Positions 1,303 through 22,783 are shown, numbered from the stretch's first letter. The stretch is 64,000 nt of DNA from Marinicella sp. (GCA_965230295.1 OZ246001.1:3040001-3104000), one strand, 5' to 3'. Program-made: numbers and translations. The notes: generated by a model not told the origin, from the sequence alone.

Positions 1303-1356
1303 ACAATACTCTAATTATGAAGTTTTTCCCTTATATAAATCTGATGAATTTCTGAT
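1303..1356 (-). promoter_or_regulatory. 11-bp-phased ATCAG promoter
   Basis: + strand CTTAT 1330, CTGAT 1341, CTGAT 1352; -10-like TATTGT at 1308-1303. Confidence 0.65.
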
Positions 1357-1741
1357 TTGTATAAGGGAAAAAATATTAAGTGAAACGTTCGAGTTTACCT
1401 AAGGTGCAGAAACTCAAAGGCATATAATTATTTATTTTGAAATTAAAGTTTTCTAATGAGTGCAATTTATAGAATTAAGTAAATAATACCTAAACTTAAC
1501 TCCAAATATTATCATTACTTAAAAGAGGCTAATATAAAAATGAATACTTAACATAAATAAAAGCAATTTAACCGATAAATATCTGCTATGGATCACTATA
1601 TTAATAATAATTTTTAATTAGAACCAACTTTGATTTTCATACCTGACGTTCCTAATATTATTCTGATTATTTAGTATATGATTATAGAAATTAACATTAT
1701 TAAGTGGCTAGATCGAAATCATTAATCTTTCAGTTTTAGTA

Positions 1742-2011
1742 TTACTGGTTGTTAATTTTAGAATTTATGTATTCAATCAATGCAGAAACTTTTAAGTTTG
1801 CTTCAGTCAGCATTATTTTCAATTGTTTATTTTCCTTGTCATAATCTAATTGGTTATTATGCTCATTATTTAGATGGTCTTTAAACTTATACTTCCATTT
1901 TAAAAATGTGCTTTGTGCAATGTCATTTTTCTGACATATGTCATATACAGATTTTCCATTTTGATTTAACTTTAACAATTTAATTCTGTCTTCATCAGTA
2001 AATCTTTTCAT
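1742..2011 (-). CDS. IS3 OrfA-like helix-turn-helix protein (stand-alone)
   Basis: KRFTDEDRIKLL...SVYDICQKNDIAQSTFLKWKYKF...KENKQLK pattern; no DDE OrfB nearby. Confidence 0.65.
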   Translation of the reverse strand: MKRFTDEDRIKLLKLNQNGKSVYDICQKNDIAQSTFLKWKYKFKDHLNNEHNNQLDYDKENKQLKIMLTEANLKVSALIEYINSKINNQ

Positions 2012-2019
2012 AATGCAAA

Positions 2020-2232
2020 CTACCTTATAACATTTAGTTCAATTGGTTTGAAACCAATGGCTTTGAGTTTATTTATTGGTATGATTATTGATATGGTTGG
2101 GTAATTTAGAACTAAGGTTCCACCAGATACCCGAAATTTAACACTCTCTATCATTTCTCCCGATTTCAAATATGCAACCAAATGTTTATTGGAATCAGAT
2201 TTAAACATATTGAGTAAAACAGCACTCACCAT
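2020..2232 (-). CDS. Small Sm/Hfq-fold-like protein A
   Basis: N-terminal helix, then LVAYLKSG, TLVL, IIIPINKLKAIG strand pattern. Confidence 0.5.
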   Translation of the reverse strand: MVSAVLLNMFKSDSNKHLVAYLKSGEMIESVKFRVSGGTLVLNYPTISIIIPINKLKAIGFKPIELNVIR

Positions 2233-2262
2233 TTACATTTCTTCTATATCTTGAGTCGCTTT

Positions 2263-2417
2263 ATTATGAGAACATGGTATAAAAAAAACCTGATCAAAAC
2301 CCAATATTAGCCGGATTATTTTCTATTCATGAAAATTACTTTTTTTAAAGTGATCAGGAAATAATCAAAATTAAATCAAACATTAATCAGGTAAAAGAAA
2401 TGTACAAATATGAAAAT
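2263..2417. promoter_or_regulatory. Divergent pair of 11-bp-phased ATCAG promoters
   Basis: Minus: CTGAT 2290, CCAAT 2301, CGGAT 2312 with CATAAT 2268-2263. Plus: ATCAG 2353, ATCAA 2364, ATCAA 2375, ATCAG 2386 with GAAAAT 2412-2417. Confidence 0.7.
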
Positions 2418-2444
2418 TCAATTTTAAAAATAATATTTACGTCA

Positions 2445-2630
2445 ATGAGTAACTTAATTTTCAAATATGTAACAGGTAGAGATGGGGTTAAACTTTATTT
2501 GTCCAACGGTAGCGTCTTAAAATGCTACATCAGTAGTGTATCAAAACACTACATTTCTGTCAGTTCTTCATCTGGGAATTCTGATGTGATGTTGTCAAAC
2601 ATCAGTGCCATTGGTTTGGAGCCTAGATAA
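2445..2630 (+). CDS. Small Sm/Hfq-fold-like protein B
   Basis: VKLYLSNGSVLKCYISSVSKHYISV...VMLSNISAIG resembles Hfq VSIYLVNGIKLQGQI..F.ILL...HAISTV; start moved from 2400 to 2445 because of the promoter position. Confidence 0.55.
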   Translation: MSNLIFKYVTGRDGVKLYLSNGSVLKCYISSVSKHYISVSSSSGNSDVMLSNISAIGLEPR

Positions 2631-2733
2631 ATATATATTTACACTTTTGGGCCCTCTATTCAATTTTGATCAGCTATTTACCCTAGTGAGGGCTCAGGGG
2701 TGTTTTTAAAGATTTTTTTACAGGTCATAAATA

Positions 2734-2809
2734 ATCAGAGTTTAGTCAGAAAAGACACAGCATTAAATCATGATTTGATCAGGCTTAATCAGACTGAACA
2801 TCATAGACT
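2734..2809 (+). promoter_or_regulatory. 11-bp-phased ATCAG promoter (5 boxes)
   Basis: ATCAG 2734, GTCAG 2745, CACAG 2756, ATCAT 2767, ATCAG 2778; TAGACT 2804-2809. Confidence 0.7.
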
Positions 2810-2847
2810 GGAATTAAATTATATACACAATAAATTAGAGGTGAATT

Positions 2848-3531
2848 ATGAATACCAGGTCTAAATCAGATAATTATGCAGATATGCAATTAGAGTTTTA
2901 CCATCAACCTATTGTTGACGAAATAGGATCCAAACATGATTGGGTTGAGCTACTGGCCCGACCCAAAGTTAATCAGATGCCTATAGGGTTAGATGTGTTC
3001 TTTGGTGCCATGTCTGACAATGAGAAAGTTGATTTTGATATCATGGTTATTAATCGACTTCCACATGTCCAAAAAGAAACTCAATACAAAAGAATCAGTG
3101 TTAATATTTCTCCCTTGAGCATAACAGATCCTTTTTTTATTGAAGTCATTAATCGGCACTTCAACAATCGAACCATAGATTTTTCACGTATTTGTCTAGA
3201 GATTGTAGAAACTGATAAGTTACAAAAGTTAAACAAAAAGAGTATTCAACTGATCAAGCAACTTCGAAAATCAGGTGCTTGGATTGCCCTAGATGATTTT
3301 GGTACATGACACGCCCACTGGGAGCTTTTGCACCATGATTTAGTGGATGTGATTAAAGTAGTTAATGTAAATGTAAATAAATCTGTCAGTTCAATTGATT
3401 TGATTGCATCATTTTCATCATTTGCTCAATCAAATGGTTTTATAACCGTCTTAGAAGGGATTGAAACTGACCAGGATTTAAATCAGGGTATAGAGCAGGG
3501 GTTTAACCATTTTCAAGGCCATTTATTTTGA
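2848..3531 (+). pseudogene. Stand-alone EAL-domain protein with one in-frame TGA
   Basis: YHQPIV, ELLAR, SVNISP, LEIVE, IALDDFGT-TGA(3307-3309), same frame continues to IKV, VLEGIET, FQGHLF. Confidence 0.8.
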
Positions 3532-4526
3532 AATTTTGAAAAAGAATATCTATTTACCGTGTTTGGGTATAAAAACTTTAATACTGATTAGCCGAGACCT
3601 GTTTCAAGGTTTTTATAGCTATTAACAATACAAAGTAGAATGTCCAAAAATCGGGCTTTTTCCTCAGTACATGTTCAATGTACTGATTCTACTTAGAACA
3701 TTCCCCGAATCCTATTTCTATATCAGACATATTCCCACTGAATTCATGGCCAGAATTGGCGGGTTAAATTCATCAAAATACCATTTGTATAAAACTATTT
3801 TGCTGAAAAGATTTGTTATCTCATAGCCAATTAAAGAATAATTTATGGATATATTTGTTTATATACTTTTTATTTAAAACATTAATTGAGAAAGGATTGA
3901 TTGAAAAGAACACTTGGTGTGTATCTAATTAATAAAATTATGATTTCATCGGTTAATACCCCAAATATTCAAGGGCTAATACTAGTAAAAGTACGGCAAT
4001 CCAAGTTGCCTGGAGCGTAAAGAACTGAATCGTTGTTTCTAGTCACAAATATTATTGTTTATTATTTTTGAACTCCAGTGGTTCAAGAAGTGATCTCGAC
4101 AGCATAAATACTGGCTCCGTTCATCATATTGGCAATGACCCGTATATTATCGTCTTTCATACCTGCAAATAGCATGGCTTCTTGGAATGTTATCAGCTAA
4201 TATATGAAGTAATTTCAATTTATTTGAGTTTAACTGAACCCATACTATGCCATTGAAAGGTCATAAATATTGCAATCCTTGCCACAAAGCTATTGACTAT
4301 CCATGCGAATGATTAAATCTTGTTAACATATTTCTCTTTCACAATATTTTTTACTAGAGTCAAATAGAACAATCGGTGAAAGACTCAAAATTATTTTTAA
4401 TTTAAAACAAGGTTTCTGGTTGATAGGGTTCCCTCATTGAGCATACCTGAGAGGTGGAAAATAGGCAGGTAATTTGGTAAGGGCTCAAATCAGACTTGGT
4501 TTCTCATTAGTTCTTTGATTAAATTG

Positions 4527-4628
4527 AAAAGGCTCGGATGGGTAACGAGGGTGAAAAAGGGGGGAACCACCCGAGCCAGTCCAAAATTGAACCCATAAGT
4601 AGAGAGAGAAAAAACTTATTGGGAACAT
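4527..4628 (-). ncRNA. Candidate sRNA copy 2 (two hairpins with CU-rich loops)
   Basis: CCCAATAAGT/ACTTATGGG stem; GGCUCGGGUGG/CCAUCCGAGCC stem (the G-U pair works only on the minus strand) plus UUUU; no long ORF downstream. Confidence 0.55.
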
Positions 4629-4633
4629 GATGT

Positions 4634-4687
4634 ATTATGTTGAAGCAGCAAATAATATTCCTTATAACCAGCTGATTATTTTCTGAT
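4634..4687 (-). promoter_or_regulatory. 11-bp-phased ATCAG promoter
   Basis: CTTAT 4661, CTGAT 4672, CTGAT 4683; CATAAT 4639-4634. Confidence 0.7.
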
Positions 4688-4695
4688 TTAATTAT

Positions 4696-5103: not shown

Positions 5104-5110
5104 TTAATTC

Positions 5111-5365
5111 CTATTTGATTGATAGCTTTCCATTTTCAATGACAACCTTGTCAGACCCGCTGGCTTCTATACTCCCTACGCCCTCAACAATGATTTCACA
5201 TGAACTACAGATTTTGCCTTTAACTGTCCCGCCACTGATTGAGGTTGACATAGTAGATGATTCTCCTTTGACCTTAATGTCATATGATTGACTGTCTTTG
5301 TTATGTAAGCTAACTGCTTGTGAACAAGAACTAAAGAATGCCAATGTTAAAACTAAATATTTCAT
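5111..5365 (-). CDS. Small secreted protein with CSSC motif
   Basis: Signal peptide MKYLVLTLAFFSSCSQA; GGAG RBS before 5365. Confidence 0.7.
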   Translation of the reverse strand: MKYLVLTLAFFSSCSQAVSLHNKDSQSYDIKVKGESSTMSTSISGGTVKGKICSSCEIIVEGVGSIEASGSDKVVIENGKLSIK

Positions 5366-5807: not shown

Positions 5808-7448
5808 TTATTGAGTGGATATCAACCCATCAAAACTGTTTTCAAATATTGATTTGATGATGCGAATATTTTTGTCAAACATATTATCCGCAGGATAACC
5901 GTCTACAAGTCCAATTTCTGGAGTAACACTGCCTGAAACGTTGTTCTCATCGCCATCATCGGCCGAAGTTTCGAAATATATGGTGTAAGTCACAACTTCG
6001 CCTGGACCCATCGATGAAATGGTGTCAGTGACATCTCCAGATCCTCCGCCAACTCCTAAACATAAAGGACCGGCATCACAACTCCAAAGTATGTTAGAAG
6101 CAGTGGTGTCTAACATGATTTGAACTTCAATGTTATTTGAAAAGGCAAATCCTGAATTTTGTACCAACACCGTAAGCTGCGCATCATTTCCATCAATTAC
6201 TTGATTACTTGGTAAATGAATTGAAACATCTGGAATACCACAATTCAATCCTCCATGTGTGACAGTCCATCCATATTGATTAATTAAAGTGCTTAGCCCC
6301 GAACCTTGGCAATAAGGTGTGGAAGCAGCACTGAAATTTACATTGTTCATCACATTTTGAGTAGCAAAGTTATTCAGCAAGCTGTCAAAGTTCCTGGTTG
6401 ATAGCCCGGAATTATTGAACATACCAGTCATGTCTTCTACTAAAGGTATTTGCCAACTTGCAAGGTCTGGATTGGCATTTGCTGCCCCATTAAACATGTA
6501 TATCATAGTAGTTACAGATGATACATTCCAATTGCTGACATCAGGGTTGGCAATACCAGCGTTATTAAACATGTAAAACATAACATTTACAGATGACACA
6601 TCCCAATTGCTGACATCGGGGTTGGCAATACTAGCATTATTAAACATGTAGGCCAAATTGGTTACAGATGATACGTCCCAATTGCTGACATCTGGATCAG
6701 CTATAGGAGTACTGTTAAACATATAAGTCATACTGGTCACAGATGACACGTCCCAATTACTTACATCAGGATTGGCAACAACAGCACCTGCAAACATACT
6801 GCTCATATTAGATACTGATGACACATCCCAATCACTCACATTTGGATTGGCAACCATTGCGTTGTTGAACATGGATCTCATATCAGTAACAGATGACACA
6901 TCCCAACTGCTCACATCGGGGTTGGCAACGGCTGCGCCAGCAAACATATGCGACATATTTTTTACAGCTGACACGTCCCACCCACTTACATCGAGGTTAT
7001 TGATTGCACTGTCAGCAAACATATGTGACATATCAGTGACTTGAGATAGATCCGGCACATCTGTGGCAATAAAATCTGTGTTTACCCCACTAAAGGCGCT
7101 ATTCATTGACTTCCATTCAATAGCGCCCCATTGATTTACGCTGGTCAACTGTTCGTTTTGAGCGGCGGCTGAATCAATAAGGTATGTGCTGGGGTAATCG
7201 CCAATGATTCTGATGGTGTGTGTGCCTGCACTTGGAAATGTATACTGAAAAGGTCCTGTTATTCCAGTGAAGTCATACACGCCATCATCATCAATATCCA
7301 CGTCATAATTGTATTGACCTGAATAGTTTGGATCTATGGGTAAATCGATGGTTGGGTATGGAATTGTATTCCATGTGGTGATGAATTCAGCTTGTGCTGA
7401 AGACATCATCCATACAGAAAACATCAGGGATAGGATGGTATATTTCAT
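5808..7448 (-). CDS. Secreted DUF285/BspA-like repeat protein with DUF11-like Ig domain (paralog A)
   Basis: Signal peptide, FITTW, QWGxIEW, 25-aa WDVSSVTxMxxMF repeats, IFENSFD near the C-terminus; start MKYT matches paralog C. Confidence 0.9.
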   Translation of the reverse strand: MKYTILSLMFSVWMMSSAQAEFITTWNTIPYPTIDLPIDPNYSGQYNYDVDIDDDGVYDFTGITGPFQYTFPSAGTHTIRIIGDYPSTYLIDSAAAQNEQLTSVNQWGAIEWKSMNSAFSGVNTDFIATDVPDLSQVTDMSHMFADSAINNLDVSGWDVSAVKNMSHMFAGAAVANPDVSSWDVSSVTDMRSMFNNAMVANPNVSDWDVSSVSNMSSMFAGAVVANPDVSNWDVSSVTSMTYMFNSTPIADPDVSNWDVSSVTNLAYMFNNASIANPDVSNWDVSSVNVMFYMFNNAGIANPDVSNWNVSSVTTMIYMFNGAANANPDLASWQIPLVEDMTGMFNNSGLSTRNFDSLLNNFATQNVMNNVNFSAASTPYCQGSGLSTLINQYGWTVTHGGLNCGIPDVSIHLPSNQVIDGNDAQLTVLVQNSGFAFSNNIEVQIMLDTTASNILWSCDAGPLCLGVGGGSGDVTDTISSMGPGEVVTYTIYFETSADDGDENNVSGSVTPEIGLVDGYPADNMFDKNIRIIKSIFENSFDGLISTQ

Positions 7449-7476
7449 GGCTTTACCTTCTGTATTAATGGACTTA

Positions 7477-7530
7477 ATTATGGAATCAGTCACAAAAATA
7501 AAACTGATTGAACCCTTATTTTTTGCTGAT
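7477..7530 (-). promoter_or_regulatory. 11-bp-phased ATCAG promoter
   Basis: CTGAT 7504, CTTAT 7515, CTGAT 7526; CATAAT 7482-7477. Confidence 0.7.
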
Positions 7531-7547: not shown

Positions 7548-8942
7548 TCATTCAAAATTGCTTTTAAATATTGACTTGATGATACGAATGTTTTCATCAA
7601 ACAAATTATCTGCAGGGGTAGGATCTACAATTCCTGGTTGCGGTGAGACAGAGCCTATAGCATTGACCTCTTGGCCATCACCGGTCGAAGTGTCGAAATT
7701 AATGGTATACGTCACAACTGCACCTGGGACCATCGATGAAATGGTATCAAAGATTGGGCCAGATGTTCCGCCACATGAATATCCACTATGGTCACAAGTC
7801 CAGAATGCATTAGAAGTGCTGGTGTCTAAAACCAAACTAACGGCAACGTTGTTTGCAGTCAGATATCCTTGATTTTTTACCAATACCATCAGTTGTGGGT
7901 TGTTTCCATCAAGCACCTGAACATTTGATAATTCAATTGCAACATCAGTGATAAGGCAATTAAAGCCTCCATCTGTGATGTTCCAATTATAATTATTAGT
8001 TAGAATCGTTCGAGACGTCGTTTCACAATAAGGTGTGTTGCCGGCACTGAAGTTTACGTTGTTCATTACATTTTGATTGGCAAAATTACTCAGCATGTAG
8101 TCATAGTTCCTGGTTGATAGCCCAGAATTGTCGAACATTTCAGACATGTCGACTACATCAGTTATCTGCCAGTTTGAAAGATCAGGATTGGCAGAGGTCG
8201 CTTCTAAGAACATTCCAGACATATCAGTTACAGATGATACAACCCAATTGTTTACATCGGGATTGGCCCTAGTTGTGTAATAAAACATATAGCTCATGTC
8301 AGTAACAGAAGATACGTCCCATCGACTTACATCAGGATTGGCAACAGTAGTACCGCCAAACATAAAACCCATGTCGGCTACTGAAGACACATCCCAATTA
8401 CTTACGCCGGGATCTGAAACATCAACGCCAAAGAACATGGCATACATATTGGAAACAAGTGACACATCCCATCTACTTACATCGAGGTTATTGATTTCAC
8501 TGAAAGAAAACATATATGACATATCAGTGACTTGAGATAGATCCGGCACATCTGTGGTCAAAAAGTTTGTAGTCACACTAGAAAAGGCAAATTTCATTGA
8601 CTTCCATTCAATATCGCCCCATTGATCTAAGCTGATCAACTGGTCGTTTAGGGCAGCGGTTGAACCAATAAAATAAGGGTTGGGGTAATCTCCCTTGATT
8701 CTGATGGTGTATATACCAGCACTTGGAAATGTATGCTGAAAAGATCCTGTAATTCCAGTGAAGTCATACACGCCATCATCATCAGTATCTATGTCATAAT
8801 CGTATTGAGTTGAATAGTTCGGATCTACTGGTAAATCAATGGTTAAGTCGGTTGTTGAGGCCTCCCATGTAGTTATGAACGGCCGAGCATCTGCATAAAA
8901 AGTCACCAGCAAAAAACATATAGTAGTTATTGTCAATCTCAT
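7548..8942 (-). CDS. Secreted DUF285/BspA-like protein (paralog B)
   Basis: Same architecture; ends IFKSNFE. Confidence 0.9.
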   Translation of the reverse strand: MRLTITTICFLLVTFYADARPFITTWEASTTDLTIDLPVDPNYSTQYDYDIDTDDDGVYDFTGITGSFQHTFPSAGIYTIRIKGDYPNPYFIGSTAALNDQLISLDQWGDIEWKSMKFAFSSVTTNFLTTDVPDLSQVTDMSYMFSFSEINNLDVSRWDVSLVSNMYAMFFGVDVSDPGVSNWDVSSVADMGFMFGGTTVANPDVSRWDVSSVTDMSYMFYYTTRANPDVNNWVVSSVTDMSGMFLEATSANPDLSNWQITDVVDMSEMFDNSGLSTRNYDYMLSNFANQNVMNNVNFSAGNTPYCETTSRTILTNNYNWNITDGGFNCLITDVAIELSNVQVLDGNNPQLMVLVKNQGYLTANNVAVSLVLDTSTSNAFWTCDHSGYSCGGTSGPIFDTISSMVPGAVVTYTINFDTSTGDGQEVNAIGSVSPQPGIVDPTPADNLFDENIRIIKSIFKSNFE

Positions 8943-8971: not shown

Positions 8972-9025
8972 ATTATGGAACCAGTCACAAAAGAATTACT
9001 GATCGAATCCTTATGTTTGACTGAT
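8972..9025 (-). promoter_or_regulatory. 11-bp-phased ATCAG promoter
   Basis: CTGAT 8999, CTTAT 9010, CTGAT 9021; CATAAT 8977-8972. Confidence 0.7.
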
Positions 9026-10598: not shown

Positions 10599-10652
10599 AT
10601 TATGGAATCAGTCACAAAAGAATTACTGACCGAATCCTTATGTTTGACTGAT
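10599..10652 (-). promoter_or_regulatory. 11-bp-phased ATCAG promoter
   Basis: CTGAC 10626, CTTAT 10637, CTGAT 10648; CATAAT 10604-10599. Confidence 0.7.
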
Positions 10653-12163: not shown

Positions 12164-12217
12164 ATTATGGGTTCGGTCATGAAAAAATAACTGATCGAAT
12201 CCTTATCTTTAGCTGAT
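12164..12217 (-). promoter_or_regulatory. 11-bp-phased ATCAG promoter
   Basis: CTGAT 12191, CTTAT 12202, CTGAT 12213; CATAAT 12169-12164. Confidence 0.7.
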
Positions 12218-12457: not shown

Positions 12458-15136
12458 TTATTCAAAATCACTTTTAAACAATGCCATGATGATCGGAATA
12501 TTTTTGTTGAACGTGTTATTTGCTTGAAAACCATCATCAATGCTTGGTTGTGTTGATACACTGCCTGAAATATCCAGTTCATCGCCATCATTACTCACAA
12601 TGTCGAAATTCACTGCGTATGTCACAACTGAATCTGGGGGCATAGCCGAAATAGTGTCATATACAGTTCCAGATGTTCCGTTACATGACAAACCGGCATG
12701 GTCACATGTCCAAAAGATGTTAGATGTATTGCTGTTGTCTAATGTGACTTCGACAGCAACATTATTTACATACTGATTTCCTGAGTTCTTTACCCATATG
12801 ATCAACTGCGGATTATTTCCATCAAGAACTTGACCACTTGGTAAGTCAATTGATACATCTGTAATAAAACAATCCAAGCCGCCGTCAGCGATTGTCCACC
12901 CTTTGTCATTGATTAAGATTTCTCTGGCAAAACCTGCTGTACAATAAGGTGTATTGCTGGCACTGAAGTTAATGTTGTGCACAACATCTTGACCTGCAAA
13001 GTTCACCAGCAAGCTGTCATAGTTATTTGTTGATAGCCCAGAATAGGCAAGCATATTTTCCATGTCATTTACATTTTCAATTTCCCAGCTTCCAACTTCA
13101 GGATTAAACAAAGTGGCGTTTAAGAACATACGAGACATATCAGTCACAGATGAGACGTCCCATCTACTCAAATCGGAATTGGCAAAAGTAGCGTTACTGA
13201 ACATGTTTTTCATATCGATTACGGATGAAACATTCCAACTGCTCAGATCGAGATTGGCGGCAACTGCTCCATCAAACATGTAACTCATATCGGTTACATT
13301 TGACACATCCCAACCACTCAAGTCAGGTTCAGCACCTCTTGCTTCACTAAACATGTTACCCATATCAGTTACTTTCGTTACATCCCAATCACCCAAATTG
13401 GGGTTGGCAATACGTGTTTGGCTAAACATGCTGTTCATGTTGTTAACTGATGACACATCCCAAGTGCGCAGTTCTGGGCTGGCATCATCGGCACCCCAAA
13501 ACATGCCGGCCATGTTGGTTACATTTGACACATCCCACCCATCAACAACTGGATTGCCAATGGCGTTCCAAAACATATAGCTCATATTGTTTATTGATGA
13601 CATGTCCCAATTGCTCAAAACTGCGAGGTTTCCGACATTACTATTAGCAAACATATATGAAGCATCAGTTACTCGAGTTAGATCAGGCACATCTGAGGTT
13701 GAGAGGTCTGTTGTTATTCCAAAAAAAGCGCGATTCATTGACTTCCACTCGATATCGCCCCATTGATCTACGCTGATCAACTGGCCATTTAATGCGGCGT
13801 TTGAACCAAAAAAATATGGGTTAGGGTATTTCTCACCGTTTATCCTGATGGTGTAAATGCCTGGGTTTGGAACTGTATACAAAAAAGCCCCATTTATTCC
13901 AGTGTAGTCACCCACAATGTTATTATTATTATCTAGGATTTGTATGTTAAAGTTATAATCACTTGAATAGTTCGGGTCAACCCCTAAATCAATACTTAAG
14001 TTGGTGGTTGTGTCCCAAGTCGTGACGAAATCTTTACCTGTAACACGTGTTTTTGATAATCTCAAATTGTCGAAGTTGACTTGAGGACCAGAGCCTGTGG
14101 CTGTAGGAGATAGTGAGTTCAAGCGAATAGATAATGGTTGTCCAATGTGTGTTGGCTGAGCTGTATAAGAAATACTTACTGAATTAAACCTTCCATCTGG
14201 CACAGGTTCATTACTTATACTTGCTAATACTTCACCATTTGACTCTAATGCAATGCTGTAATCAGAAAAATCAACATTTAATCGATTCCCAACATCGACT
14301 ATTAAACAATATGTAGAACCTTCCTCAATAATTTCGCTGGTAGCTTGAATTAATGAGTTTGGACCAAGATTGATATAAGCGACATTTGAACCTTCTGGAA
14401 CAGGATCAATAAAGTCAGTATTTCTGGGGTTATAAGTCCCTTTGCCCAAATTCGGAAACTCGACCCAACCAGGTACATTACTGTTCCAACTACCATCATT
14501 AACTGAAACCTCTTCAAAACCTGGGTTCTGTAAAATGATGCCTTGTATTTTCGACAATCTCACATTATCAAAGTTGACTTGAGGTCCAGAGCCTGTGATA
14601 GAAGGTGAGAGTGAATCCAGGCGAATAGATAATGGTTGTCCAATGTGTGTTGGCTGAGCTGTATAAGAAATACTTACTGAAATAAACCTTCCATCTGGCA
14701 CAGGTTCATTACTTAAACTTGCTAACACTTCACCATTTGACTCTAATGCAATGATGTAATCAGAAAAATCAACATTTAATCGATTTCCTACATCTATAGT
14801 TAAACTATAAGTCGCCCCTTCCTCGATAGTTTCACCCGTTGTTTGTAGCAGAGAGTTTGGACCAATATTGATATAAGCAACATTAGAGCCCTCTGGAACA
14901 GGATCAAGGAAATCAGCATTTGTCGGATTATAAGTACCTTTGCCTAAATTTGTAGACTCGATCCAACCAGGTGCATTACTGTTCCAACTACCATCATTAA
15001 CTGAAACCTCTTCAAAACCAGGATTCTGCAAAATGATGTTTTCTGCACTTGTTTCATGACAGATATTTTGTGCATTCGTTTTACTGCACAAAAGCAAAGT
15101 GAGCAAAAGAGTTTGTATTAAAGCAATCGTTCTCAT
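12458..15136 (-). CDS. Secreted DUF285 protein with two tandem N-terminal HpiC1/Stig-cyclase-like beta-sandwich domains (paralog E)
   Basis: Two ~166-aa repeats NPGFE...PEGSNVAY...DVGN...GQPLSIRL...FDNVRL, then DUF285 and Ig-like domains; ends LFKSDFE. Confidence 0.85.
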   Translation of the reverse strand: MRTIALIQTLLLTLLLCSKTNAQNICHETSAENIILQNPGFEEVSVNDGSWNSNAPGWIESTNLGKGTYNPTNADFLDPVPEGSNVAYINIGPNSLLQTTGETIEEGATYSLTIDVGNRLNVDFSDYIIALESNGEVLASLSNEPVPDGRFISVSISYTAQPTHIGQPLSIRLDSLSPSITGSGPQVNFDNVRLSKIQGIILQNPGFEEVSVNDGSWNSNVPGWVEFPNLGKGTYNPRNTDFIDPVPEGSNVAYINLGPNSLIQATSEIIEEGSTYCLIVDVGNRLNVDFSDYSIALESNGEVLASISNEPVPDGRFNSVSISYTAQPTHIGQPLSIRLNSLSPTATGSGPQVNFDNLRLSKTRVTGKDFVTTWDTTTNLSIDLGVDPNYSSDYNFNIQILDNNNNIVGDYTGINGAFLYTVPNPGIYTIRINGEKYPNPYFFGSNAALNGQLISVDQWGDIEWKSMNRAFFGITTDLSTSDVPDLTRVTDASYMFANSNVGNLAVLSNWDMSSINNMSYMFWNAIGNPVVDGWDVSNVTNMAGMFWGADDASPELRTWDVSSVNNMNSMFSQTRIANPNLGDWDVTKVTDMGNMFSEARGAEPDLSGWDVSNVTDMSYMFDGAVAANLDLSSWNVSSVIDMKNMFSNATFANSDLSRWDVSSVTDMSRMFLNATLFNPEVGSWEIENVNDMENMLAYSGLSTNNYDSLLVNFAGQDVVHNINFSASNTPYCTAGFAREILINDKGWTIADGGLDCFITDVSIDLPSGQVLDGNNPQLIIWVKNSGNQYVNNVAVEVTLDNSNTSNIFWTCDHAGLSCNGTSGTVYDTISAMPPDSVVTYAVNFDIVSNDGDELDISGSVSTQPSIDDGFQANNTFNKNIPIIMALFKSDFE

Positions 15137-15164: not shown

Positions 15165-15228
15165 ATTTTCTATAGTTCCCTGGATTAATAACTGATCAAA
15201 AACTGATTTAGTGATGATTTTTTCTGAT
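15165..15228 (-). promoter_or_regulatory. 11-bp-phased ATCAG promoter
   Basis: CTGAT 15192, CTGAT 15203, ATGAT 15214, CTGAT 15224; GAAAAT 15170-15165. Confidence 0.6.
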
Positions 15229-15245: not shown

Positions 15246-15420
15246 TTATTCAAAATCACTTTTTTGTATTGATTTGATGTTTGAATGCTTCTATCAAACA
15301 TATTTGTCGAAGGTTTCCCTTTAATTAGATACAGAATTAAATCAGGTAAAAACAAGGGTTTAATCAGGACATTATCCTGATGTTTCTCGATAATGACCGT
15401 TAAGGAGCAATGCTTTGGTA
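15246..15420 (-). pseudogene. Decayed 3' fragment of a DUF285 paralog
   Basis: Frameshifted NMFDRSIQ / IKSIQKSDFE-stop, compare NLFDENIRIIKSIFKSNFE in paralog B. Confidence 0.55.
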
Positions 15421-16879
15421 CACACACTCTCTCTATTGCGTCGCTCTTTATTTGTTCCGCAAGGGTGTCGAGGCTTTTACATTCACCCCCTTATGTACCT
15501 CGTCACTCTTGTGACTCTATCCATACGAGCATTTATTTTTAGACAAACCCTTATCTTGCTTTGTACCCCAACAGGACATGCCATTACTTTGTTAAAAGAA
15601 TTTTCAAAACCATATACAGGGTGTTGTCATTAGTTGTTAATTATTTCTGTTATTTTCTTCATATCTGGCCATTTGAATTAAAGGGTTCAATTTAATTTTG
15701 TTATTTGTTTTGAATACTGTAAAGGTTGTTAGTAGCCCAGTGAGAAATGGTACTTTTCTACATCGTAGGCTATCACAATGGATTAATTTCTTGGCTGTAT
15801 CAGTTAAGTCTCTTTAACAATGCTGATTCATTACGGCCGTTCTGAATTTGCCATTAAAGCTGTTATTAAATGTGATTTATGTTGGAGTGCCAGGTTGAAT
15901 AAATGGTTATCTAACACTCTGTTATATAACCCTGAAGAACATAGCTTCGTAAGTATATTCAGTCCTGTAGAAAAATTCGATTGTATTTGGGCCTGTTTCT
16001 TGGTATTCAATCTCTAGATCAAGGGAGCGTTCAGCCACAGCGCTATTAATCAATGAGGCCAAAAATTTGCCAAAATAATTGTGGGGGCAAGTGATTAACT
16101 AGACTTAACACTTCGAAGTGCCTTCAACCTGATTCTATATTTGAAATAAAACCTATTGCCTTCCCTTTGATGACTAAGCTCATTGGGTGTTTTCAACTTC
16201 TCTTTTAGTAAAATGTTAACCTGCATCTTTTCCTCCATGTACATGCAGTACATTTACCTTGCATTATCAATCAAGATTTTTATGCATTGCATGCTACAGC
16301 AAATCCGAATGATGCTCTGTTTCATTTTAGGAGAAAATATACTTTGCCATGGTTAAGTTCTTTGGTGGAAAGGACATTCCCTCTTCAAGGAATTTGTTTA
16401 TGGGTAATCTTGGATGTCCTATTAATAAGCATCTTAGAGAGGTTGTTAACCGTTCAGTTAACGATTGCACTAAGTGAACATTGGAATAAAGCTAATTTAG
16501 AATGATTTAATGTGCTGAAGTTAATTTTGAATTAATGACTAGATTAATTTTTTACATAGGTAAAATTTGTCTGATGAATCCTTTTCAAGTAGCTTTTCTG
16601 CAAGTGTATCTAATTGGTTTTTCTGAAAGATTGTTTCTTAACACAACGAAAATAAAGTCCATTATAAATGAAGTTTTTCTAAGCACATTAATGGTATCAA
16701 GACCCTTGAAGTCTTTTTCAATACTTTGGTACCTCAAGGGTCTTACATAGAATCTAAAATTTTCCATTGCTTATTTTGAAAAGTTCTGATTAGATTTTTC
16801 AACATTAAAAATCAAGTTACTTACATTTATTTAGATTAATTGTTAAAAAATAATACAAGATATTTTTTAACAAACAAGC

Positions 16880-18160
16880 TCATTCATCAAAACCGTTTTT
16901 AAATATTACAGATTCTGCATAATTGACAGTTATAAGTCTATCAATTACATTGTCAGCAGGAAAATTCTCAGAAGCTATTGTGGCATTGCCAGTAACTAAA
17001 ATATAATGATCATTACTACTGGAACCCGAAAAGTCGAAATTCACGTTGTACGTCACAACTGAGCCCCCATTGAGTGTTGGTATGTAAGATATAATCGCGT
17101 CAGTGCCTGAACCACATGAAACACCATCATTATCACATGTCCAAGTAATATTAGAAACTTCGGCTGAGGCTATAAAAAAACTTACATCAATGCCATCTAA
17201 TATAGGTATAATCCCAGAAGAGTTTCTTACAATAACCGTCAGATTAGGATCGTTAGCATCAATAGAATCTACACCAGTTGGTAAATAAATTGAAACATCT
17301 CGTGCAACACAATTACTACCATCATCAATGATCGACCAACCCTTATTAGTAATTAAATCATCTCTTGGGACGGAAGCGCAGTGTGGAGTATCTCCTGCAT
17401 TCAAGTTAACGTTTTGCATTACGTCTTGTTCTGAAAAGCTATGCAACATTTGGCTGTAGTTAAGCCTTGATAGACCGGAAGTAGGGTAGAACATTTCACC
17501 CATTGTGGTTACATTTGTCACATCCCAATTTTCGATATTAGGGTTGGCATCCGTTGCATTACCAAATAGATAACTCATATTAGTAACTTGAGATGTATTC
17601 CAGAGATCTACTATTGGATTGAAACCGTGTGAACTTACAAACATACCCTCTAATGTGATTGCAGCAGATGTATCCAAATGAGTCAATTCAAGATACGGTA
17701 ATGTAGAGTAAGCAAACGCATACTCGAAACTTGATACTTGAGAGGTATTAGGCACATCTGTGGCAGAAAAAAATGTACCATTTAAGATCGAAAATGCATT
17801 TTCCCATGATTTCCATTCAATATCTCCCCACTGTTTTAATTCGGTAAATTTGTTATGCGCACCTGGGGAGTTGCCCATGTTGGGGTTTGCAAATGCACCA
17901 TAGATTTTGACTTCATAAGTACCCGGATTTTGATAAATGTGGTTAACGTCCCCGGTTTGATTTAGAAGTTCTGGGGTTCCGTCACCGAAATCTATTCTGT
18001 AGTTGTATTCGGATAGATGATTTTGATCTCTAGGAATCACAAGATTCAAATCAGATGGATCTACAGTCCATTCGAATATGAAAGGCTCTGCCTGTGCATG
18101 TGCAGAAGTTGTCATGAGAATTGAAAATAAAATAAAAATCGTAAAGTATATAAGTTTCAT
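16880..18160 (-). CDS. Secreted DUF285/BspA-like protein with PKD-like N-terminus (paralog F)
   Basis: YRIDFGDGT..HIYQNPGTYEV, QWGDIEW, repeats; ends IFKNGFDE. Confidence 0.9.
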   Translation of the reverse strand: MKLIYFTIFILFSILMTTSAHAQAEPFIFEWTVDPSDLNLVIPRDQNHLSEYNYRIDFGDGTPELLNQTGDVNHIYQNPGTYEVKIYGAFANPNMGNSPGAHNKFTELKQWGDIEWKSWENAFSILNGTFFSATDVPNTSQVSSFEYAFAYSTLPYLELTHLDTSAAITLEGMFVSSHGFNPIVDLWNTSQVTNMSYLFGNATDANPNIENWDVTNVTTMGEMFYPTSGLSRLNYSQMLHSFSEQDVMQNVNLNAGDTPHCASVPRDDLITNKGWSIIDDGSNCVARDVSIYLPTGVDSIDANDPNLTVIVRNSSGIIPILDGIDVSFFIASAEVSNITWTCDNDGVSCGSGTDAIISYIPTLNGGSVVTYNVNFDFSGSSSNDHYILVTGNATIASENFPADNVIDRLITVNYAESVIFKNGFDE

Positions 18161-18186: not shown

Positions 18187-18240
18187 ATTATGGGTGGTGT
18201 GTGAATAAATAAACTGACTCAAACCTGATTTTTTACTGAT
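18187..18240 (-). promoter_or_regulatory. 11-bp-phased ATCAG promoter
   Basis: CTGAC 18214, CTGAT 18225, CTGAT 18236; CATAAT 18192-18187. Confidence 0.7.
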
Positions 18241-18255
18241 GATTGATTCAACGTT

Positions 18256-20217
18256 TTATTCAAAGCCGTTTTGGAATATAAGTTCATAAGTAACAGGAAT
18301 GTTCTTGTTAAACATGTTGTCAGCAGGATAACCATCAGCACCTGTAAGCATTGAGACGCTACCCAAAATATTCACTTCTTCGCTTTCAGCTGCCGATGTG
18401 TCAAAATGGATGGTAAAAGTTGTCCCTGTATCAGGCGGCATGTTCATAAGCGAATATGAAATCTCACCAGATGTTCCACCAACTCCAACACATGCAGGGT
18501 CGAAATCACATGTCCAGGAAATATTTGATGTATTGATAGGGTCTAGTGTAATGAGAACTTCTATGTCCTCTGTTTGGTAGCCTGAATTTTCAACATATAC
18601 GATCAACTCAGGAGCATATCCATTCAGAGTTTGAATGTTTTGTAACACAGCTCTGGCATCAGGAGTATAGCAACCAATCGGACCTGCATCGATGATGGTC
18701 CATCCTTTTAGATTGATTAAATCGTCTCGTGCAGAACTCGACTCGCAGTAAGGTGTACCATCAGCATTGAAAGTGACATTACTCATTACATTTTGTGAAG
18801 CGAGGTTAGACAGCCAGCGGTCATAGTTTCTTGTTGAAAACCCTGGTATCAATGACGTGTCGAAGTAACCAAACATGTTAGTCATGTCACTGACATTTTG
18901 CACATCCCAGAACTGAAGGTCCGGGTTAGCTTTTGGAGTGTGTAAAAACATGTGGAACATGTCAGTCACATTAGAAACGTCCCAATTGGTCACATCAGGA
19001 TTGGCTTCGTCAGCTCCAGCAAACATGGCATTCATAGTGGTGACTGATGATGTATCCCAATTTTCAACTTCGGGATCGGCAACATTCGCGTCAATGAACA
19101 TTCTACTCATATCGACCACATTGGAAGTATCCCATTTTGATACGTTGGGGTTAGCAATTTCAGCACTTGCAAACATAACACTCGTGGTGGTGACAGATGA
19201 TGTATCCCAATTTTCAACATCAGGGTTGGCGCAACAAGTTCCACTGAACATGCCGCCAATGGATTCTACATTTGAAATATCCCATCCACTGACATCTGGA
19301 TCGGCATCAGAAAGACTGAACATTGAAGACATGTTAGTTACATTTGATACAACCCAACTACTCACATTCGGAGTGAAATTGACCCCAAAAAACATACCTG
19401 ACATGTCGGTTATGTTTGAAACATCCCAACTTCCTACATCATAAGTGCCAGTGGAGTAATAAAACATGCTCGACATATTTGTTACACTTGACAAATTCCA
19501 GTCTCCTACATCTGCTTCTCCAGATGCGCCAGCAAACATAAAGCTCATATTTTCAACACTACTTGTAATCCAATCGCCAGTATCAGGTACAAATGACTGA
19601 ACCCCATCGTCATTAATTCCTCCTGTTTCTCTGAATGTACCGCGCATATTTGTTACATTACTAACGTCCCATGAACCAAAGCCCCGAATATTGCCAGCTG
19701 CTTTCCAGAAAGCATGATCCAAATTTCTTGCAGATGACATGTCCCAATCACTTAGATCGACATCAACTTCACAATTTCCACACATATATGTAAAGTCAGT
19801 TACTTGAGATAGGTCAGGTGGGTTTTGTAGTGCAAATGTAATGCCTTTCGCTTCTCTGAAAGCGGATTTCATAGACAACCAGGGCATGTCCATTTCAAGT
19901 ATGCGGATTATTTGGCGGTTCCGAGCAGAGCGAGAGCCAAATAGATAAGGATTTGGAAAATTTCCAGTGATCCTAACAGTATAGATTCTAGGGCTAAAAT
20001 ATGTGTACTGAACATTTCCAGTTTGCCCAGTGAGTTCAGGATTACCATCATTATCGAGATCTACATTAAAATTGTATGGAAGGCTAGGATCAGTCCTTAT
20101 ATCGAGAGTTAATCCGTCGGGTAATTGGTCATTCGCTTCGAATTCAAAGACGAAATCAGCATTTGCCGAGAACGATACAAGAATAAGAAATAAAATGGAA
20201 GAAATTGTATATTTCAT
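18256..20217 (-). CDS. Secreted DUF285/BspA-like protein (paralog G)
   Basis: More than 10 repeats; ends LIFQNGFE; GAGG RBS. Confidence 0.9.
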   Translation of the reverse strand: MKYTISSILFLILVSFSANADFVFEFEANDQLPDGLTLDIRTDPSLPYNFNVDLDNDGNPELTGQTGNVQYTYFSPRIYTVRITGNFPNPYLFGSRSARNRQIIRILEMDMPWLSMKSAFREAKGITFALQNPPDLSQVTDFTYMCGNCEVDVDLSDWDMSSARNLDHAFWKAAGNIRGFGSWDVSNVTNMRGTFRETGGINDDGVQSFVPDTGDWITSSVENMSFMFAGASGEADVGDWNLSSVTNMSSMFYYSTGTYDVGSWDVSNITDMSGMFFGVNFTPNVSSWVVSNVTNMSSMFSLSDADPDVSGWDISNVESIGGMFSGTCCANPDVENWDTSSVTTTSVMFASAEIANPNVSKWDTSNVVDMSRMFIDANVADPEVENWDTSSVTTMNAMFAGADEANPDVTNWDVSNVTDMFHMFLHTPKANPDLQFWDVQNVSDMTNMFGYFDTSLIPGFSTRNYDRWLSNLASQNVMSNVTFNADGTPYCESSSARDDLINLKGWTIIDAGPIGCYTPDARAVLQNIQTLNGYAPELIVYVENSGYQTEDIEVLITLDPINTSNISWTCDFDPACVGVGGTSGEISYSLMNMPPDTGTTFTIHFDTSAAESEEVNILGSVSMLTGADGYPADNMFNKNIPVTYELIFQNGFE

Positions 20218-20266
20218 GGTTCACCTCGTTTTACTTAATTTAAAGTTCATTGATAATGAAATGCTT

Positions 20267-20449
20267 TTAAAGAGATTCAAAACATTTGATTTCACTGAGT
20301 AATAGGATTGACCGAAGAGAAGACTCAGAGTCGACAATCACAAAATAATGCATGACATTTTTGAGGGTGCAAATGGCCTGATCACCATTTTTTAAGAAGA
20401 TTCTGATGTTGGCATTGTGTTTAAATTGTTCTAGTAATTGATTTCTCAT
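20267..20449 (-). CDS. Small Sm/Hfq-fold-like protein C
   Basis: QLLEQFK helix, IRIFLKNG, YFVIVD, ILLLSEIKCF strands; AAGGG RBS; phased promoter upstream. Confidence 0.6.
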   Translation of the reverse strand: MRNQLLEQFKHNANIRIFLKNGDQAICTLKNVMHYFVIVDSESSLRSILLLSEIKCFESL

Positions 20450-20483
20450 GGCACACCCTTAATTGGTCGTTAAACTTGAAACC

Positions 20484-20537
20484 AGTTTAAGATGCATGGT
20501 TTATATTGACCTTACCGAAACCGGATTAATATCTGTT
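20484..20537 (-). promoter_or_regulatory. 11-bp-phased promoter (degenerate boxes)
   Basis: CTTAC 20511, CGGAT 20522, CTGTT 20533; TAAACT 20489-20484. Confidence 0.5.
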
Positions 20538-20732
20538 TTTATCTTTAAAAACTTGAAAAAAACCTAAAAAAAATAAAAATGACAGTTTTAGACTGGATAT
20601 ATAAAAACCTGGCTAAGTTGTAGCTGACTTAAAGGAAATTTGTTAATCAGTAACAGAGGCTTTATCTAAATTTTGAATGAAAATGGTTACTACATAAATA
20701 ATTAAGAAGTTATTAGGAGGTATGTTTAATAA

Positions 20733-20797
20733 ATCAGGTATTAATTAAGTAAAGGTCAGCAATAGATCAGGATTATGATTTAAATATATTCAATAAT
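20733..20797 (+). promoter_or_regulatory. 11-bp-phased ATCAG promoter
   Basis: ATCAG 20733, ATTAA 20744, GTCAG 20755, ATCAG 20766; AATAAT 20792-20797. Confidence 0.65.
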
Positions 20798-20845
20798 TAA
20801 ATTGATGCAATGGATGTGTCTTATTAATTTAGTGAATTACAAATC

Positions 20846-21952
20846 ATGAGTGTGTATATGTTGAAATCATCAAGTCGTATCGAAAAGAAGGTTTTGCCTC
20901 CATATTTTTTAAACCTCCCAGTTTATATGCTGATATATTTTGGTTTATTAACTATCCCTAGATCAGCCTTTCCAGAAACACCTTCTTCTGAATATAAATC
21001 AGATCCAGATTACTCTGTTGTTATAGATGGGATACCTAATCAATACGATGATGTGTTGAACACACCAGAAATAGATAAAGTGGATTTGGAAGCATTGATA
21101 TGGGAACCAGAAGTGGCCGGTATCTATCCGGCAATCATTATGCTACATGGGGCAGGTGGCTTGTATTACCAAAGTGATGACTCATGTGATGATGCTGACA
21201 GGAGTTGTTGGGGGTTATCTGGCAAATTTCGATACTGGGCTCATTTATTAAGTAAAGGTCACCCATACGATTATTCGGATAAATTTATCATCATTGCAGT
21301 TGATTCCCACACCCCACGAGGTTATGACCATCATGGAGTGTCTCAAATAGCCAGTGGATCCAGACCTGCAAATGTCACAGCTCATCTTGGTAGGCCTTGG
21401 GATTTTTATGCAGCACTGAATTATTTAAAGTCACGAGATGATGTGATTCAAAATGAAATTTTTGCTCTGGGGTTTTCTGATGGCGGTGGGGGGGTGTTGA
21501 GTGCAATCGCTGCATCAGATCAAGCCGTTATGGTTAATGAATCTGATTATTTTCATGGAATTGATAACAACTCTGAAGAGGGGCGTGCAGTAATGGCCGA
21601 TGATTCAGTCAGCGGCGCTGTAGTTTTTTATCCAAGTTGTGGTCTTCAAGGTTATTTTAATGGTGCATACACTCATTTTGGACAACTATTGGTCCAAGTT
21701 GGCAGTGATGATGACATCACTGTGCCGTCAAGATGTATTGAACGCCAATCTGAATCCATTGGTTTAGGAATAAGCCCGACTGATTTTGTTATTGATATTT
21801 ACGAAGGGGCTGATCATGGTTTCGATTATTTTGAATCTGAAACTCAAAATGCCTGTATTGCAACAGAAAAGGCTATTTCATTTTTTTCAGCAAAAGTAGG
21901 TGACAGCATTTTTTCATCTCACTTTAACTCTAATGTTTGTGCAGAAAATTAA
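20846..21952 (+). CDS. Dienelactone hydrolase-family alpha/beta hydrolase, probably exported
   Basis: PAIIMLHGAGG, GFSDGG, FYPSC, GSDDDI, YEGADHGFD; DSIFSSHF near the C-terminus; start uncertain. Confidence 0.8.
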   Translation: MSVYMLKSSSRIEKKVLPPYFLNLPVYMLIYFGLLTIPRSAFPETPSSEYKSDPDYSVVIDGIPNQYDDVLNTPEIDKVDLEALIWEPEVAGIYPAIIMLHGAGGLYYQSDDSCDDADRSCWGLSGKFRYWAHLLSKGHPYDYSDKFIIIAVDSHTPRGYDHHGVSQIASGSRPANVTAHLGRPWDFYAALNYLKSRDDVIQNEIFALGFSDGGGGVLSAIAASDQAVMVNESDYFHGIDNNSEEGRAVMADDSVSGAVVFYPSCGLQGYFNGAYTHFGQLLVQVGSDDDITVPSRCIERQSESIGLGISPTDFVIDIYEGADHGFDYFESETQNACIATEKAISFFSAKVGDSIFSSHFNSNVCAEN

Positions 21953-22166
21953 TCGCCAGCTTTGAAATGATCCGTTTTGTGCTGAGAATTAAGATAGGTT
22001 GAGAGTGAAGTAACCGAGAATGTAAACTAACTTGAGTACGCCTTGGTTGATTATATTTTGAAGACAACGTAACGTGATACATTTATAAATCAAGGGTCAA
22101 CTAAAATCGGGTGTGTGCGCTGAAGGGCTCCCTATCCATTGAAGCCCCAGAAGCTTGCTTATTTGG

Positions 22167-22697
22167 TCATTCCAGTACAGCCAGTAAGTGATCAAACCCT
22201 TTACTGCTGGCGATTTCTGCTGCCGATAAACCCTCGGTGGTTTTAATGGAAGCATCTGCGCCATGGTCAACCAGGCTTCTGGCAACCTCTGCATGGTTAT
22301 AAAATACGGCGTACATCAAAGCAGTCCACCCATCTGATGTCGTTATATTCATATCAGCACTCATGTCGATCAACAACTTGGCTGTATCGTGATGGCCATT
22401 CGAAGCGGCAAAATGCAAAGCTGTCCAATCGCTGCTGTCGATTTTGTCGATTTCCGCACCATGCATTAGCAACATTGAAACAGTGTCAGTATGACCTGCC
22501 CCGGCAGCATATGACAACAAAGAAACATTTTCCTTTTCAGACACCGTGTTTACATCAGCACCATCGATGATGGCTTTTTCTAAAAATTCAGTTTTGCCAT
22601 TATAAGCGGCACTGATCAGCTGTTTGTCAGTGGTTCCCCCACAAGCTTGAAGGATGATTAAAGTAAAGCATACAATGCTTAAATATATAAATTTCAT
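22167..22697 (-). CDS. Ankyrin-repeat lipoprotein
   Basis: Lipobox LQAC; TALHFAASNGH and TALMYA repeats. Confidence 0.9.
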   Translation of the reverse strand: MKFIYLSIVCFTLIILQACGGTTDKQLISAAYNGKTEFLEKAIIDGADVNTVSEKENVSLLSYAAGAGHTDTVSMLLMHGAEIDKIDSSDWTALHFAASNGHHDTAKLLIDMSADMNITTSDGWTALMYAVFYNHAEVARSLVDHGADASIKTTEGLSAAEIASSKGFDHLLAVLE

Positions 22698-22729
22698 TTG
22701 ATTCTCTCCTGTAACTATTTACAGCTGCC

Positions 22730-22783
22730 AGCTTAATACAGAGCTATGGTATTACCCTGACTTAAACCTGATGAATTCCTGAT
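22730..22783 (-). promoter_or_regulatory. 11-bp-phased ATCAG promoter
   Basis: CTGAC 22757, CTGAT 22768, CTGAT 22779; TAAGCT 22735-22730. Confidence 0.7.

Follow-up and report, generated by a model that had tools for sequence, protein, structure and literature searches.

To our knowledge, transmembrane transcription regulators of the ToxR type are known mainly from a few pathogens, with few direct targets listed. The pho boxes of PhoB, like other OmpR/PhoB tandem sites, are 11-bp direct repeats, each unit a conserved core trailed by an A/T-rich tail, and they replace the −35 hexamer; such core-plus-tail units are the layout used by OmpR/PhoB-type winged helices, and a pho box ends 10 bp upstream of the −10 element. 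HilA is a soluble regulator with a tetratricopeptide repeat (TPR) region. For Vibrio cholerae, a cryo-electron microscopy report describes two TcpP protomers bound to two TGTAA sites in tandem, from −52 to −35 of the toxT promoter; ToxR occupies the corresponding place at ompU, and RNA polymerase is contacted by the downstream protomer (PMC12802830). HilA of Salmonella SPI-1 is an OmpR/ToxR-family winged helix-turn-helix (wHTH) protein that is encoded in an acquired A+T-rich island and activates island promoters; the DNA of such islands is usually silenced by H-NS-like proteins, and their wHTH activators (ToxR and HilA) counteract this silencing (PMC5655915). CadC of Escherichia coli belongs to the ToxR-like receptor family, carries a wHTH domain and directly activates its target promoter, and its sites Cad1 and Cad2 are described as far upstream, quasi-palindromic and A/T-rich (PMC5430869). 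Here we analyze a 64,000-nt stretch of the Marinicella sp. genome (GCA_965230295.1 OZ246001.1:3040001–3104000), hereafter the window, in which ATCAG boxes phased at 11 bp precede a −10-like hexamer at many promoters, and we ask which regulator may bind them.

The genome is a single contig of 4,008,074 bp with 44% GC. All 11 example arrays named in the original prediction are present, each on the strand of its downstream unit. A strict three-box pattern, ATCAG-N6-AT[CA]AG-N6-[AG]T[CA]AG, matched the window eight times against 0.00 expected from 100 dinucleotide-preserving shuffles, which places the phased boxes above the background of shuffled sequence, as had been proposed. The same pattern matched the whole 4.0-Mb genome 16 times and each of 40 relatives (41 genomes in all) zero to three times, in the genome-wide and comparative scan that the prediction had suggested. 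When both spacers were varied from 3 to 10 nt, the 6/6 combination gave the 16 matches, and the 63 other combinations gave 0–4 each and 17 in total. Distances between same-strand ATCAG pentamers in the low-GC island that holds many of the sites were 11 nt (11 times), 22 nt (seven times) and 33 nt (three times), and none of the remaining distances between 5 and 35 nt was seen more than once; period 11 outperformed the other periods from 8 to 14 for box arrays. A reversed-genome control returned 0 matches and was not relied on, since GACTA is nine times rarer than ATCAG and the control is therefore too weak; the spacer-shift and shuffle controls were used instead.

The boxes stand in a fixed register to the hexamer. 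Across the 15 unique strict matches, the hexamer 21 nt past the proximal box was among the top two −10 matches of 19 offsets in 14 cases and was best or tied best in 10, and a box followed by N21-nATAAT occurred 10 times in the window against 0.76 expected. We also combined three 7-mer box scores with a −10 score over periods of 9–13 and spacers of 17–25. Period 11 with spacer 21 yielded 31, 22, and 15 matches at >20, >24, and >28 bits, respectively, compared with at most 5, 1, and 0 for wrong periods and at most 22, 9, and 4 for period 11 with other spacers; the predicted gap of exactly 21 nt is the clear mode of this period-by-spacer matrix. Every hexamer listed in the prediction was recovered (CATAAT seven times, GAAAAT twice, and TAGACT, TAAACT, TAAGCT, TATTGT, and AATAAT once each), and one further site, with GATAAT, was added at 15341. 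The repeat unit is 11 bp long and reads ATCAG(G)nnWWn, with ATCAG at positions 1–5 and A/T at position 9 in 62 of 66 units and at position 10 in 60 of 66. With a threshold of >17 bits for boxes plus −10 element, and with shifted registers merged, there were 33 sites; the island holds 22 of them and the window 13. The weaker window sites at 2756(+), 20744(+), and 20537(−) have degenerate boxes and lower scores, yet they obey the 21-nt rule.

When the sequence flanking the boxes was compared, the 33 sites formed 28 clusters (55% identity or more) with a median identity of 32%. This surrounding sequence is unrelated and duplication is therefore not the explanation of the sites, as the prediction had argued; duplication accounts for a few site pairs only. 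A same-strand open reading frame (ORF) of at least 40 aa begins within 500 nt of the hexamer at 36 of 37 first-pass sites, mostly after 8–155 nt and for many after 26–32 nt; the remaining site, together with some sites that have short ORFs, precedes strongly structured units of about 100 nt. The box pattern is real and far from random, and about 30 promoters of a single design carry it. These are very probably real co-regulated promoters, predicted to be bound by a winged-helix protein.

Two features of the promoters bear on what such a protein would do. TTGACA, at 16–18 nt from the hexamer, is matched at no more than three of six positions in 31 of the 33 sites, and an extended −10 TG is found in only one of the 33. 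As they have neither a −35 hexamer nor an extended −10, the promoters should need an activator. With transcription assumed to start about 7 nt past the hexamer, the three ATCAG(G) boxes would lie at about −60, −49, and −38, and winged-helix (Trans_reg_C) protomers would line up on them head-to-tail along a single face of the helix. RNA polymerase would then be recruited by the promoter-proximal protomer, in the manner of ToxR and TcpP; the proximal pair of boxes would occupy the place equivalent to the TcpP/ToxR sites and the third box would add one protomer. An activator of the winged-helix class, as originally predicted, is supported by the phased direct repeats, their A/T tail, the fixed register, the missing −35 element and a ToxR-like candidate gene in the island. 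It is very improbable, in our judgment, that the boxes are instead operators of a repressor, or sites of a non-winged-helix nucleoid or anti-silencing protein or of some unrecognized small island protein. The island DNA is A+T-rich (29–43% GC compared with 44% for the genome) and thus of a kind that is usually silenced by H-NS-like proteins (PMC5655915), and several island ORFs are without a family match; against this, the fixed register to the −10 and the lack of a −35 element fit an activator that replaces the −35 contact, and an 11-bp direct-repeat unit with an A/T tail is a winged-helix signature. Counter-silencing of H-NS by an activator may operate in this island as well, by analogy with ToxR and HilA. 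An alternative sigma factor, for which an ECF-like gene at L001:4093–4827 was considered, was rejected because it cannot account for three phased boxes and a 21-nt gap.

The genome holds 23 matches to Trans_reg_C, of which 12 are C-terminal (response-regulator type) and 11 N-terminal. A single hydrophobic segment (Kyte–Doolittle hydropathy >1.6, at about residues 114–162) was present in nine of the 10 N-terminal proteins tested, and the tenth reached 1.58; by its sequence features, an N-terminal Trans_reg_C domain with one hydrophobic segment after it is the ToxR/CadC architecture. Three-box arrays of >12 bits lie within 700 nt of three of the 11 N-terminal wHTH genes (24.3, 24.8, and 13.4 bits), where about 0.39 would be expected. 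Tandem 11-bp direct repeats are also the standard site type of the OmpR/PhoB family, so that one of the 12 classical two-component response regulators present in this genome, one of them encoded in the window at 35239–35961, might bind the boxes. However, none of the 12 response-regulator genes has an array of >12 bits within 1.5 kb (maximum 11.1 bits), and box arrays do adjoin ToxR-like genes both here and in other genera. We therefore regard a response regulator as distinctly unlikely, and the activator is probably a transmembrane regulator of the ToxR type.

Two of these ToxR-like proteins stand out. The first, of 764 aa, is encoded in the island at genome 3,018,107–3,020,401, about 20 kb to the left of the window. 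It comprises a Trans_reg_C domain at residues 37–107, a transmembrane-like segment at 126–148 (by Kyte–Doolittle hydropathy only) and then TPRs, and a three-box promoter begins 216 nt past the stop codon of its gene. The second, of 706 aa, is encoded at genome 1,436,200, divergently from a four-box site, and has a Trans_reg_C domain at 26–98, a transmembrane-like segment at 133–162 (again by Kyte–Doolittle only) and a PD40/TolB-like domain. Both thus have large C-terminal regions past the segment, made of TPRs in the 764-aa protein and PD40 in the 706-aa protein. Neither matched a Response_reg domain, and neither matched a BTAD domain at E ≤ 0.001.

The sites next to the two genes differ in design. 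Three boxes and variable A/T-rich spacers characterize the island sites, whereas the class adjacent to the 706-aa gene is built from four or more boxes, with C(C/A)AGAA as a conserved spacer and GAC-TTCAGG as the proximal unit; the boxes beside that gene read ATCAG/ATCAG/GTCAG/TTCAG and obey the 21-nt rule. Both four-box-class sites in this genome, at 1,436,117 and 3,694,385, drive PF00756 esterases. The prediction of a single activator encoded outside the window holds in part: a candidate does lie outside it, about 20 kb to the left, but there seem to be two box classes and probably two paralogous regulators, with the 706-aa paralogue probably serving the related four-box class before the two esterase genes.

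The association of boxes with the 706-aa type is conserved across genera. Orthologues with 52–71% identity occur in a Marinicella metagenome-assembled genome (MAG), Marinicella sp. W31, Kangiella, two Aliikangiella species, Pleionea, and a Kangiellaceae MAG. In seven of the eight 706-aa-type loci, the divergent intergenic region retains three to five phased (A/G/T)TCAG boxes and, after them, a −10-like hexamer, and the gene downstream in the relatives encodes an esterase-like protein; the eighth locus, in a MAG labeled Colwellia, is without boxes. In the six of the seven box loci where the gap was counted by hand, it was 21 nt in four, 20 nt in one, and 21 or 22 nt in one. The relatives G005 and G024 show the same box arrangement at their orthologue loci.

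An alternative is that the 706-aa wHTH–transmembrane–PD40 protein alone activates all ATCAG promoters, those of the island included, with the 764-aa protein binding something else. No other regulator has an association with (A/G/T)TCAG boxes that spans genera (seven of eight loci plus this genome), and the site beside the 706-aa gene has ATCAG-type boxes and the 21-nt gap described above. Nevertheless, its sites differ from those of the island in box number, spacer and proximal unit, both four-box-class sites here precede esterase genes, and its orthologues are present in G005 and G024, yet these genomes have just two and three strict sites compared with 16 here. We consider this assignment unlikely.

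The island protein is favored for the island-type sites because this is the only genome of the 41 that has many strict sites and this 764-aa protein. Its homologues in the relatives are 24–33% identical, and a period-11 array of >15 bits was found at six of 11 of their loci, just downstream of or divergent from the regulator gene; the chance of an array is about 0.11 per locus, and other periods gave zero to three of 11. Direct reading showed a 21-nt gap and a −10-like hexamer after the array at L018, L020, L021, L022, and L026. In metagenome data, arrays were found at two of five 764-aa-type loci (two of the five being near-identical), one of which, L049, has the exact 21-nt geometry. The closest relative of the protein in the 40 genomes is 33% identical to it, the best of 1.84 billion cluster representatives (HMMER search) is 36% identical, and no homologue was detected at E ≤ 1e-20 among 8000 word-sharing candidates.

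Several observations weigh against this protein as the activator or against the proposed arrangement. Upstream of the 764-aa gene itself there were no boxes, the best score in its left flank being 9.5 bits. Boxes accompany only about half of the homologue loci (six of 11, and two of five in metagenomes), and in the control periods 8 and 12 also reached three of 11 such loci. The box positions relative to +1 hang on the assumed start. The recognition helix also differs, reading AMHRTVSLVRVAL in the 764-aa protein, TIDQCISKLRKAL in the box-associated homologues, and TLQRSIAQLRKAL in the 706-aa type; synteny at the homologues is therefore not transferable to sequence specificity. Across the homologues, with L020 and L022–L024 left out, no clear rule linked recognition helix to box sequence. 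Taken together, activator-dependent promoters of sigma-70 type, with a −10 element, no −35 element and a ToxR-like regulator, are somewhat favored as the best overall explanation; the activator may be the 764-aa island protein specifically, an identification that we hold tentatively.

Two side observations concern this protein family. Across the relatives G001–G040, proteins of about 760 aa with the wHTH–transmembrane–TPR layout are strongly expanded in this bacterial family: G024 reaches 15 matches and G017 has 14 (E ≤ 1e-10). At L025:1295–1340 in the relative G019, a homologue of the 764-aa protein is preceded by four 11-bp-phased boxes that read GACAA and not TCAG.

Comparison with the described systems indicates a mechanism of known kind. 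Like TcpP and ToxR, the candidates have an N-terminal, putatively cytoplasmic wHTH, one transmembrane-like segment and no receiver, and their C-terminal domains may likewise be periplasmic. The sites, too, are direct repeats one helical turn apart, and the two proximal boxes here would span about −49 to −34 given the assumed +1, close to the TcpP position (PMC12802830). Unlike those systems, the box is ATCAG(G) and neither TGTAA nor an A/T tract as at ToxR sites, each site has three to four boxes instead of two, the C-terminal domains are TPR or PD40 and not of the ToxR/TcpP type, and the regulon would comprise about 30 promoters. The 764-aa candidate resembles HilA in being island-encoded and in joining a wHTH to TPRs, but it has a transmembrane-like segment at 126–148 right after the wHTH whereas HilA is soluble. 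The resemblance to pho boxes lies in the 11-bp unit, the conserved core, the A/T tail and the replacement of the −35; the core sequence is different, the proximal pentamer ends 21 nt upstream of the −10 where a pho box ends 10 bp upstream, and there is no response-regulator gene near the boxes. The boxes are also phased direct repeats abutting the −35 position, unlike the CadC sites, and unlike in SARP regulators there is no BTAD after the wHTH of either candidate (E ≤ 0.001). We found no report of an ATCAG-type site in the literature searched, which excluded supplements. As far as these searches reach, the motif, the regulon and the branch of regulators appear to be new. The site model is clean and information-rich, with three phased boxes in a fixed register and about 30 candidate direct targets, and the pairing of regulator and box recurs in Marinicellaceae and Kangiellaceae. 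Consequently, the DNA specificity, oligomeric binding and signal input of a large unstudied TPR/PD40 branch of ToxR-like proteins become directly testable, and the model shows where a species-specific surface-protein island begins and ends and what it contains.

The first 23 kb of the window have a GC content of 29–41% and belong to a low-GC stretch that runs from about genome 3,004,000 to 3,064,000, which gives the island a length of about 60 kb and a start about 36 kb to the left of the window. The island proposed for the first 23 kb is thus present, but its start lies outside the window. Likewise, the island sites of the proposed regulon were confirmed, but the regulon is not confined to the island, since about 11 further sites lie elsewhere in the genome. 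No flanking tRNA was found in L001, L002, or window positions 1–30000. Targets in the window encode six secreted proteins with DUF285/PARCEL repeats, an ankyrin protein, a dienelactone-hydrolase-like protein, an EAL protein, and a hemerythrin/Rsd-like protein, along with small proteins and RNA-like units. Those in the island's left part encode secreted proteins with FG-GAP, Ig-like, and CarboxypepD_reg repeats, a glycosyltransferase and a second hemerythrin-like protein; outside the island they encode a 3,388-aa protein, more DUF285 and FG-GAP proteins and the two esterases.

A set of small proteins lies directly behind boxed promoters: four paralogues of 60–76 aa are encoded at 2400–2630 (+), 2020–2232 (−), 20267–20449 (−), and L002:18936–19124 (−). 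None of the four has a Pfam match. The AlphaFold model of a 62-aa paralogue (pLDDT 87.7) returned only Hfq structures at the top of its Foldseek list (TM-score about 0.8, E about 2e-3), so the island seems, from this model, to carry four Hfq-fold genes. Structured units of about 100 nt also follow boxed promoters immediately, at 4525–4627 (−), 1200–1296 (−), and 15402–15520 (+), with fold z-scores of −5.3, −5.1, and −6.1, respectively. Two of the three share a 5′ hairpin and a terminator-like GGCTCG…CGAGCC-UUUU hairpin with a C-rich loop. No Rfam match was obtained at E ≤ 0.1 in window positions 1–24000, and the units are candidate small RNAs (sRNAs) or leaders. It is possible, if doubtful, that the whole constitutes a horizontally acquired 60-kb island with its own membrane-anchored ToxR-like master switch, which would directly fire more than 25 promoters of one design for surface proteins (DUF285/PARCEL, FG-GAP, Ig-like, and ankyrin), and with a post-transcriptional layer of its own, made up of four Hfq-fold paralogues and three small RNAs with C-rich loops. 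If true, the island would be a self-contained transcriptional and riboregulatory module that remodels the cell surface on a periplasmic signal.

The individual window sites share the 21-nt gap from proximal box to hexamer. At 1303–1356 (−), ATCAG/ATCAG/ATAAG with TATTGT precedes an sRNA-like leader and a 165-aa ORF at 699–1196 (28.2 bits); a second possible register there has CATAAT 21 nt past the middle box. At 2263–2316 (−), a degenerate distal box and a proximal ATCAG with CATAAT precede the Hfq-fold 70-aa ORF at 2020–2232; this site scores 21.1 bits with the full-length position weight matrix (PWM) and 18.7 bits for boxes plus −10. At 2353–2417 (+), ATCAG/ATCAA/ATCAA/ATCAG with GAAAAT precedes the Hfq-fold 76-aa ORF at 2400–2630 (21.5 bits). 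A weak site at 2756–2809 (+), CACAG/ATCAT/ATCAG with TAGACT (13.3 bits), lies upstream of the EAL gene at 2848–3531, and the promoter at 4634–4687 (−), ATCAG/ATCAG/ATAAG with CATAAT (33.6 bits), precedes the sRNA-like unit at 4525–4627.

At 7477–7530 (−), ATCAG/ATAAG/ATCAG with CATAAT precedes the DUF285 protein gene at 5808–7493 (36.0 bits). Three more minus-strand promoters built in the same way precede DUF285 protein genes: 8972–9025 (gene 7548–8942; 33.6 bits), 10599–10652 (gene 9028–10572; 31.1 bits), and 12164–12217 (gene 10655–12136; 33.3 bits). At 15165–15218 (−), ATCAT/ATCAG/ATCAG with GAAAAT precedes an 892-aa gene with HpiC1-like and DUF285 regions at 12458–15136 (26.3 bits), and at 15341–15394 (+), ATCAG/ACAAG/ATCAG with GATAAT precedes the structured sRNA-like unit at 15402–15520 (31.7 bits). 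The promoter at 18187–18240 (−), ATCAG/ATCAG/GTCAG with CATAAT, serves a PKD and DUF285 gene at 16880–18160 (34.5 bits). A weaker promoter at 20484–20537 (−), AACAG/ATCCG/GTAAG with TAAACT, precedes the Hfq-fold 60-aa ORF at 20267–20449 and then a DUF285 gene at 18256–20217; it scores 25.8 bits with the full-length PWM and <17 bits for boxes plus −10. The weak promoter at 20733–20797 (+), ATCAG/ATTAA/GTCAG/ATCAG with AATAAT, precedes the dienelactone-hydrolase-like gene at 20846–21952 (17.3 bits). The last, at 22730–22783 (−), has ATCAG/ATCAG/GTCAG with TAAGCT before an ankyrin-repeat lipoprotein-like gene at 22167–22697 (31.1 bits) and forms the right-hand end of the island. A further target, the gene at 114–620 (+) for the hemerythrin/Rsd-like protein of 168 aa, has its boxed promoter just to the left of the window at genome 3,039,950 (32.5 bits).

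That protein and the product of L002:18102–18572 (−) are paralogous regulon members, and both match Hemerythrin HHE; the 114–620 product also matches Rsd/AlgQ with 34 bits, where the cut-off is 35. An anti-sigma-70-like function of these members among promoters that lack a −35 element would be interesting, as a speculation that is so far unsupported. The EAL gene at 2848–3531 (+) has an in-frame TGA at 3307–3309, within its DDFGT-G motif; this TGA probably arose by nonsense mutation, which would make the gene a pseudogene. Boxed promoters at genome 3,020,617, 3,027,399, and 3,039,950 have a common leader of about 110 nt in which a conserved GAAAACATG...CATG hairpin precedes the start codon. 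At genome 1,629,122 and 2,683,818, about 1 Mb apart, a boxed promoter recurs in two identical copies, and each copy includes the beginning of a choice-of-anchor-Q protein gene.

A C-terminal tag was also seen. A loose C-terminal regular expression matched 91 ORFs of at least 120 aa genome-wide, most of them visibly with a D(L/V)IFxDGFE-like end. Examples in the window are the ORFs at 9028–10572, 10655–12136, 16880–18160, and 18256–20217, and many tagged ORFs have signal peptides. The same ending occurs on proteins of relatives (L031 and L035), and one tagged member matches the choice-of-anchor Q domain. The tag was rejected as a regulon marker, with a strong box array at only 12 of the 91 matched ORFs; it may be a sorting or secretion signal.

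Other genes were noted within and at the edges of the island. The low-GC left edge, at L001:4093–8650, encodes a protein with sigma-70 region 2 only, a 234-aa ORF, a 1,062-aa TPR-CHAT protein and then a subtilase. Within the island, a fragment of an IS3-type transposase helix-turn-helix (HTH_Tnp_1, 89 aa) lies at 1742–2011 (−), in the same direction as the Hfq-fold gene at 2020–2232. The right border adjoins genes for a Crp/Fnr-type regulator and a cytochrome cd1 nitrite reductase (nirS-like) at 22937–26095.

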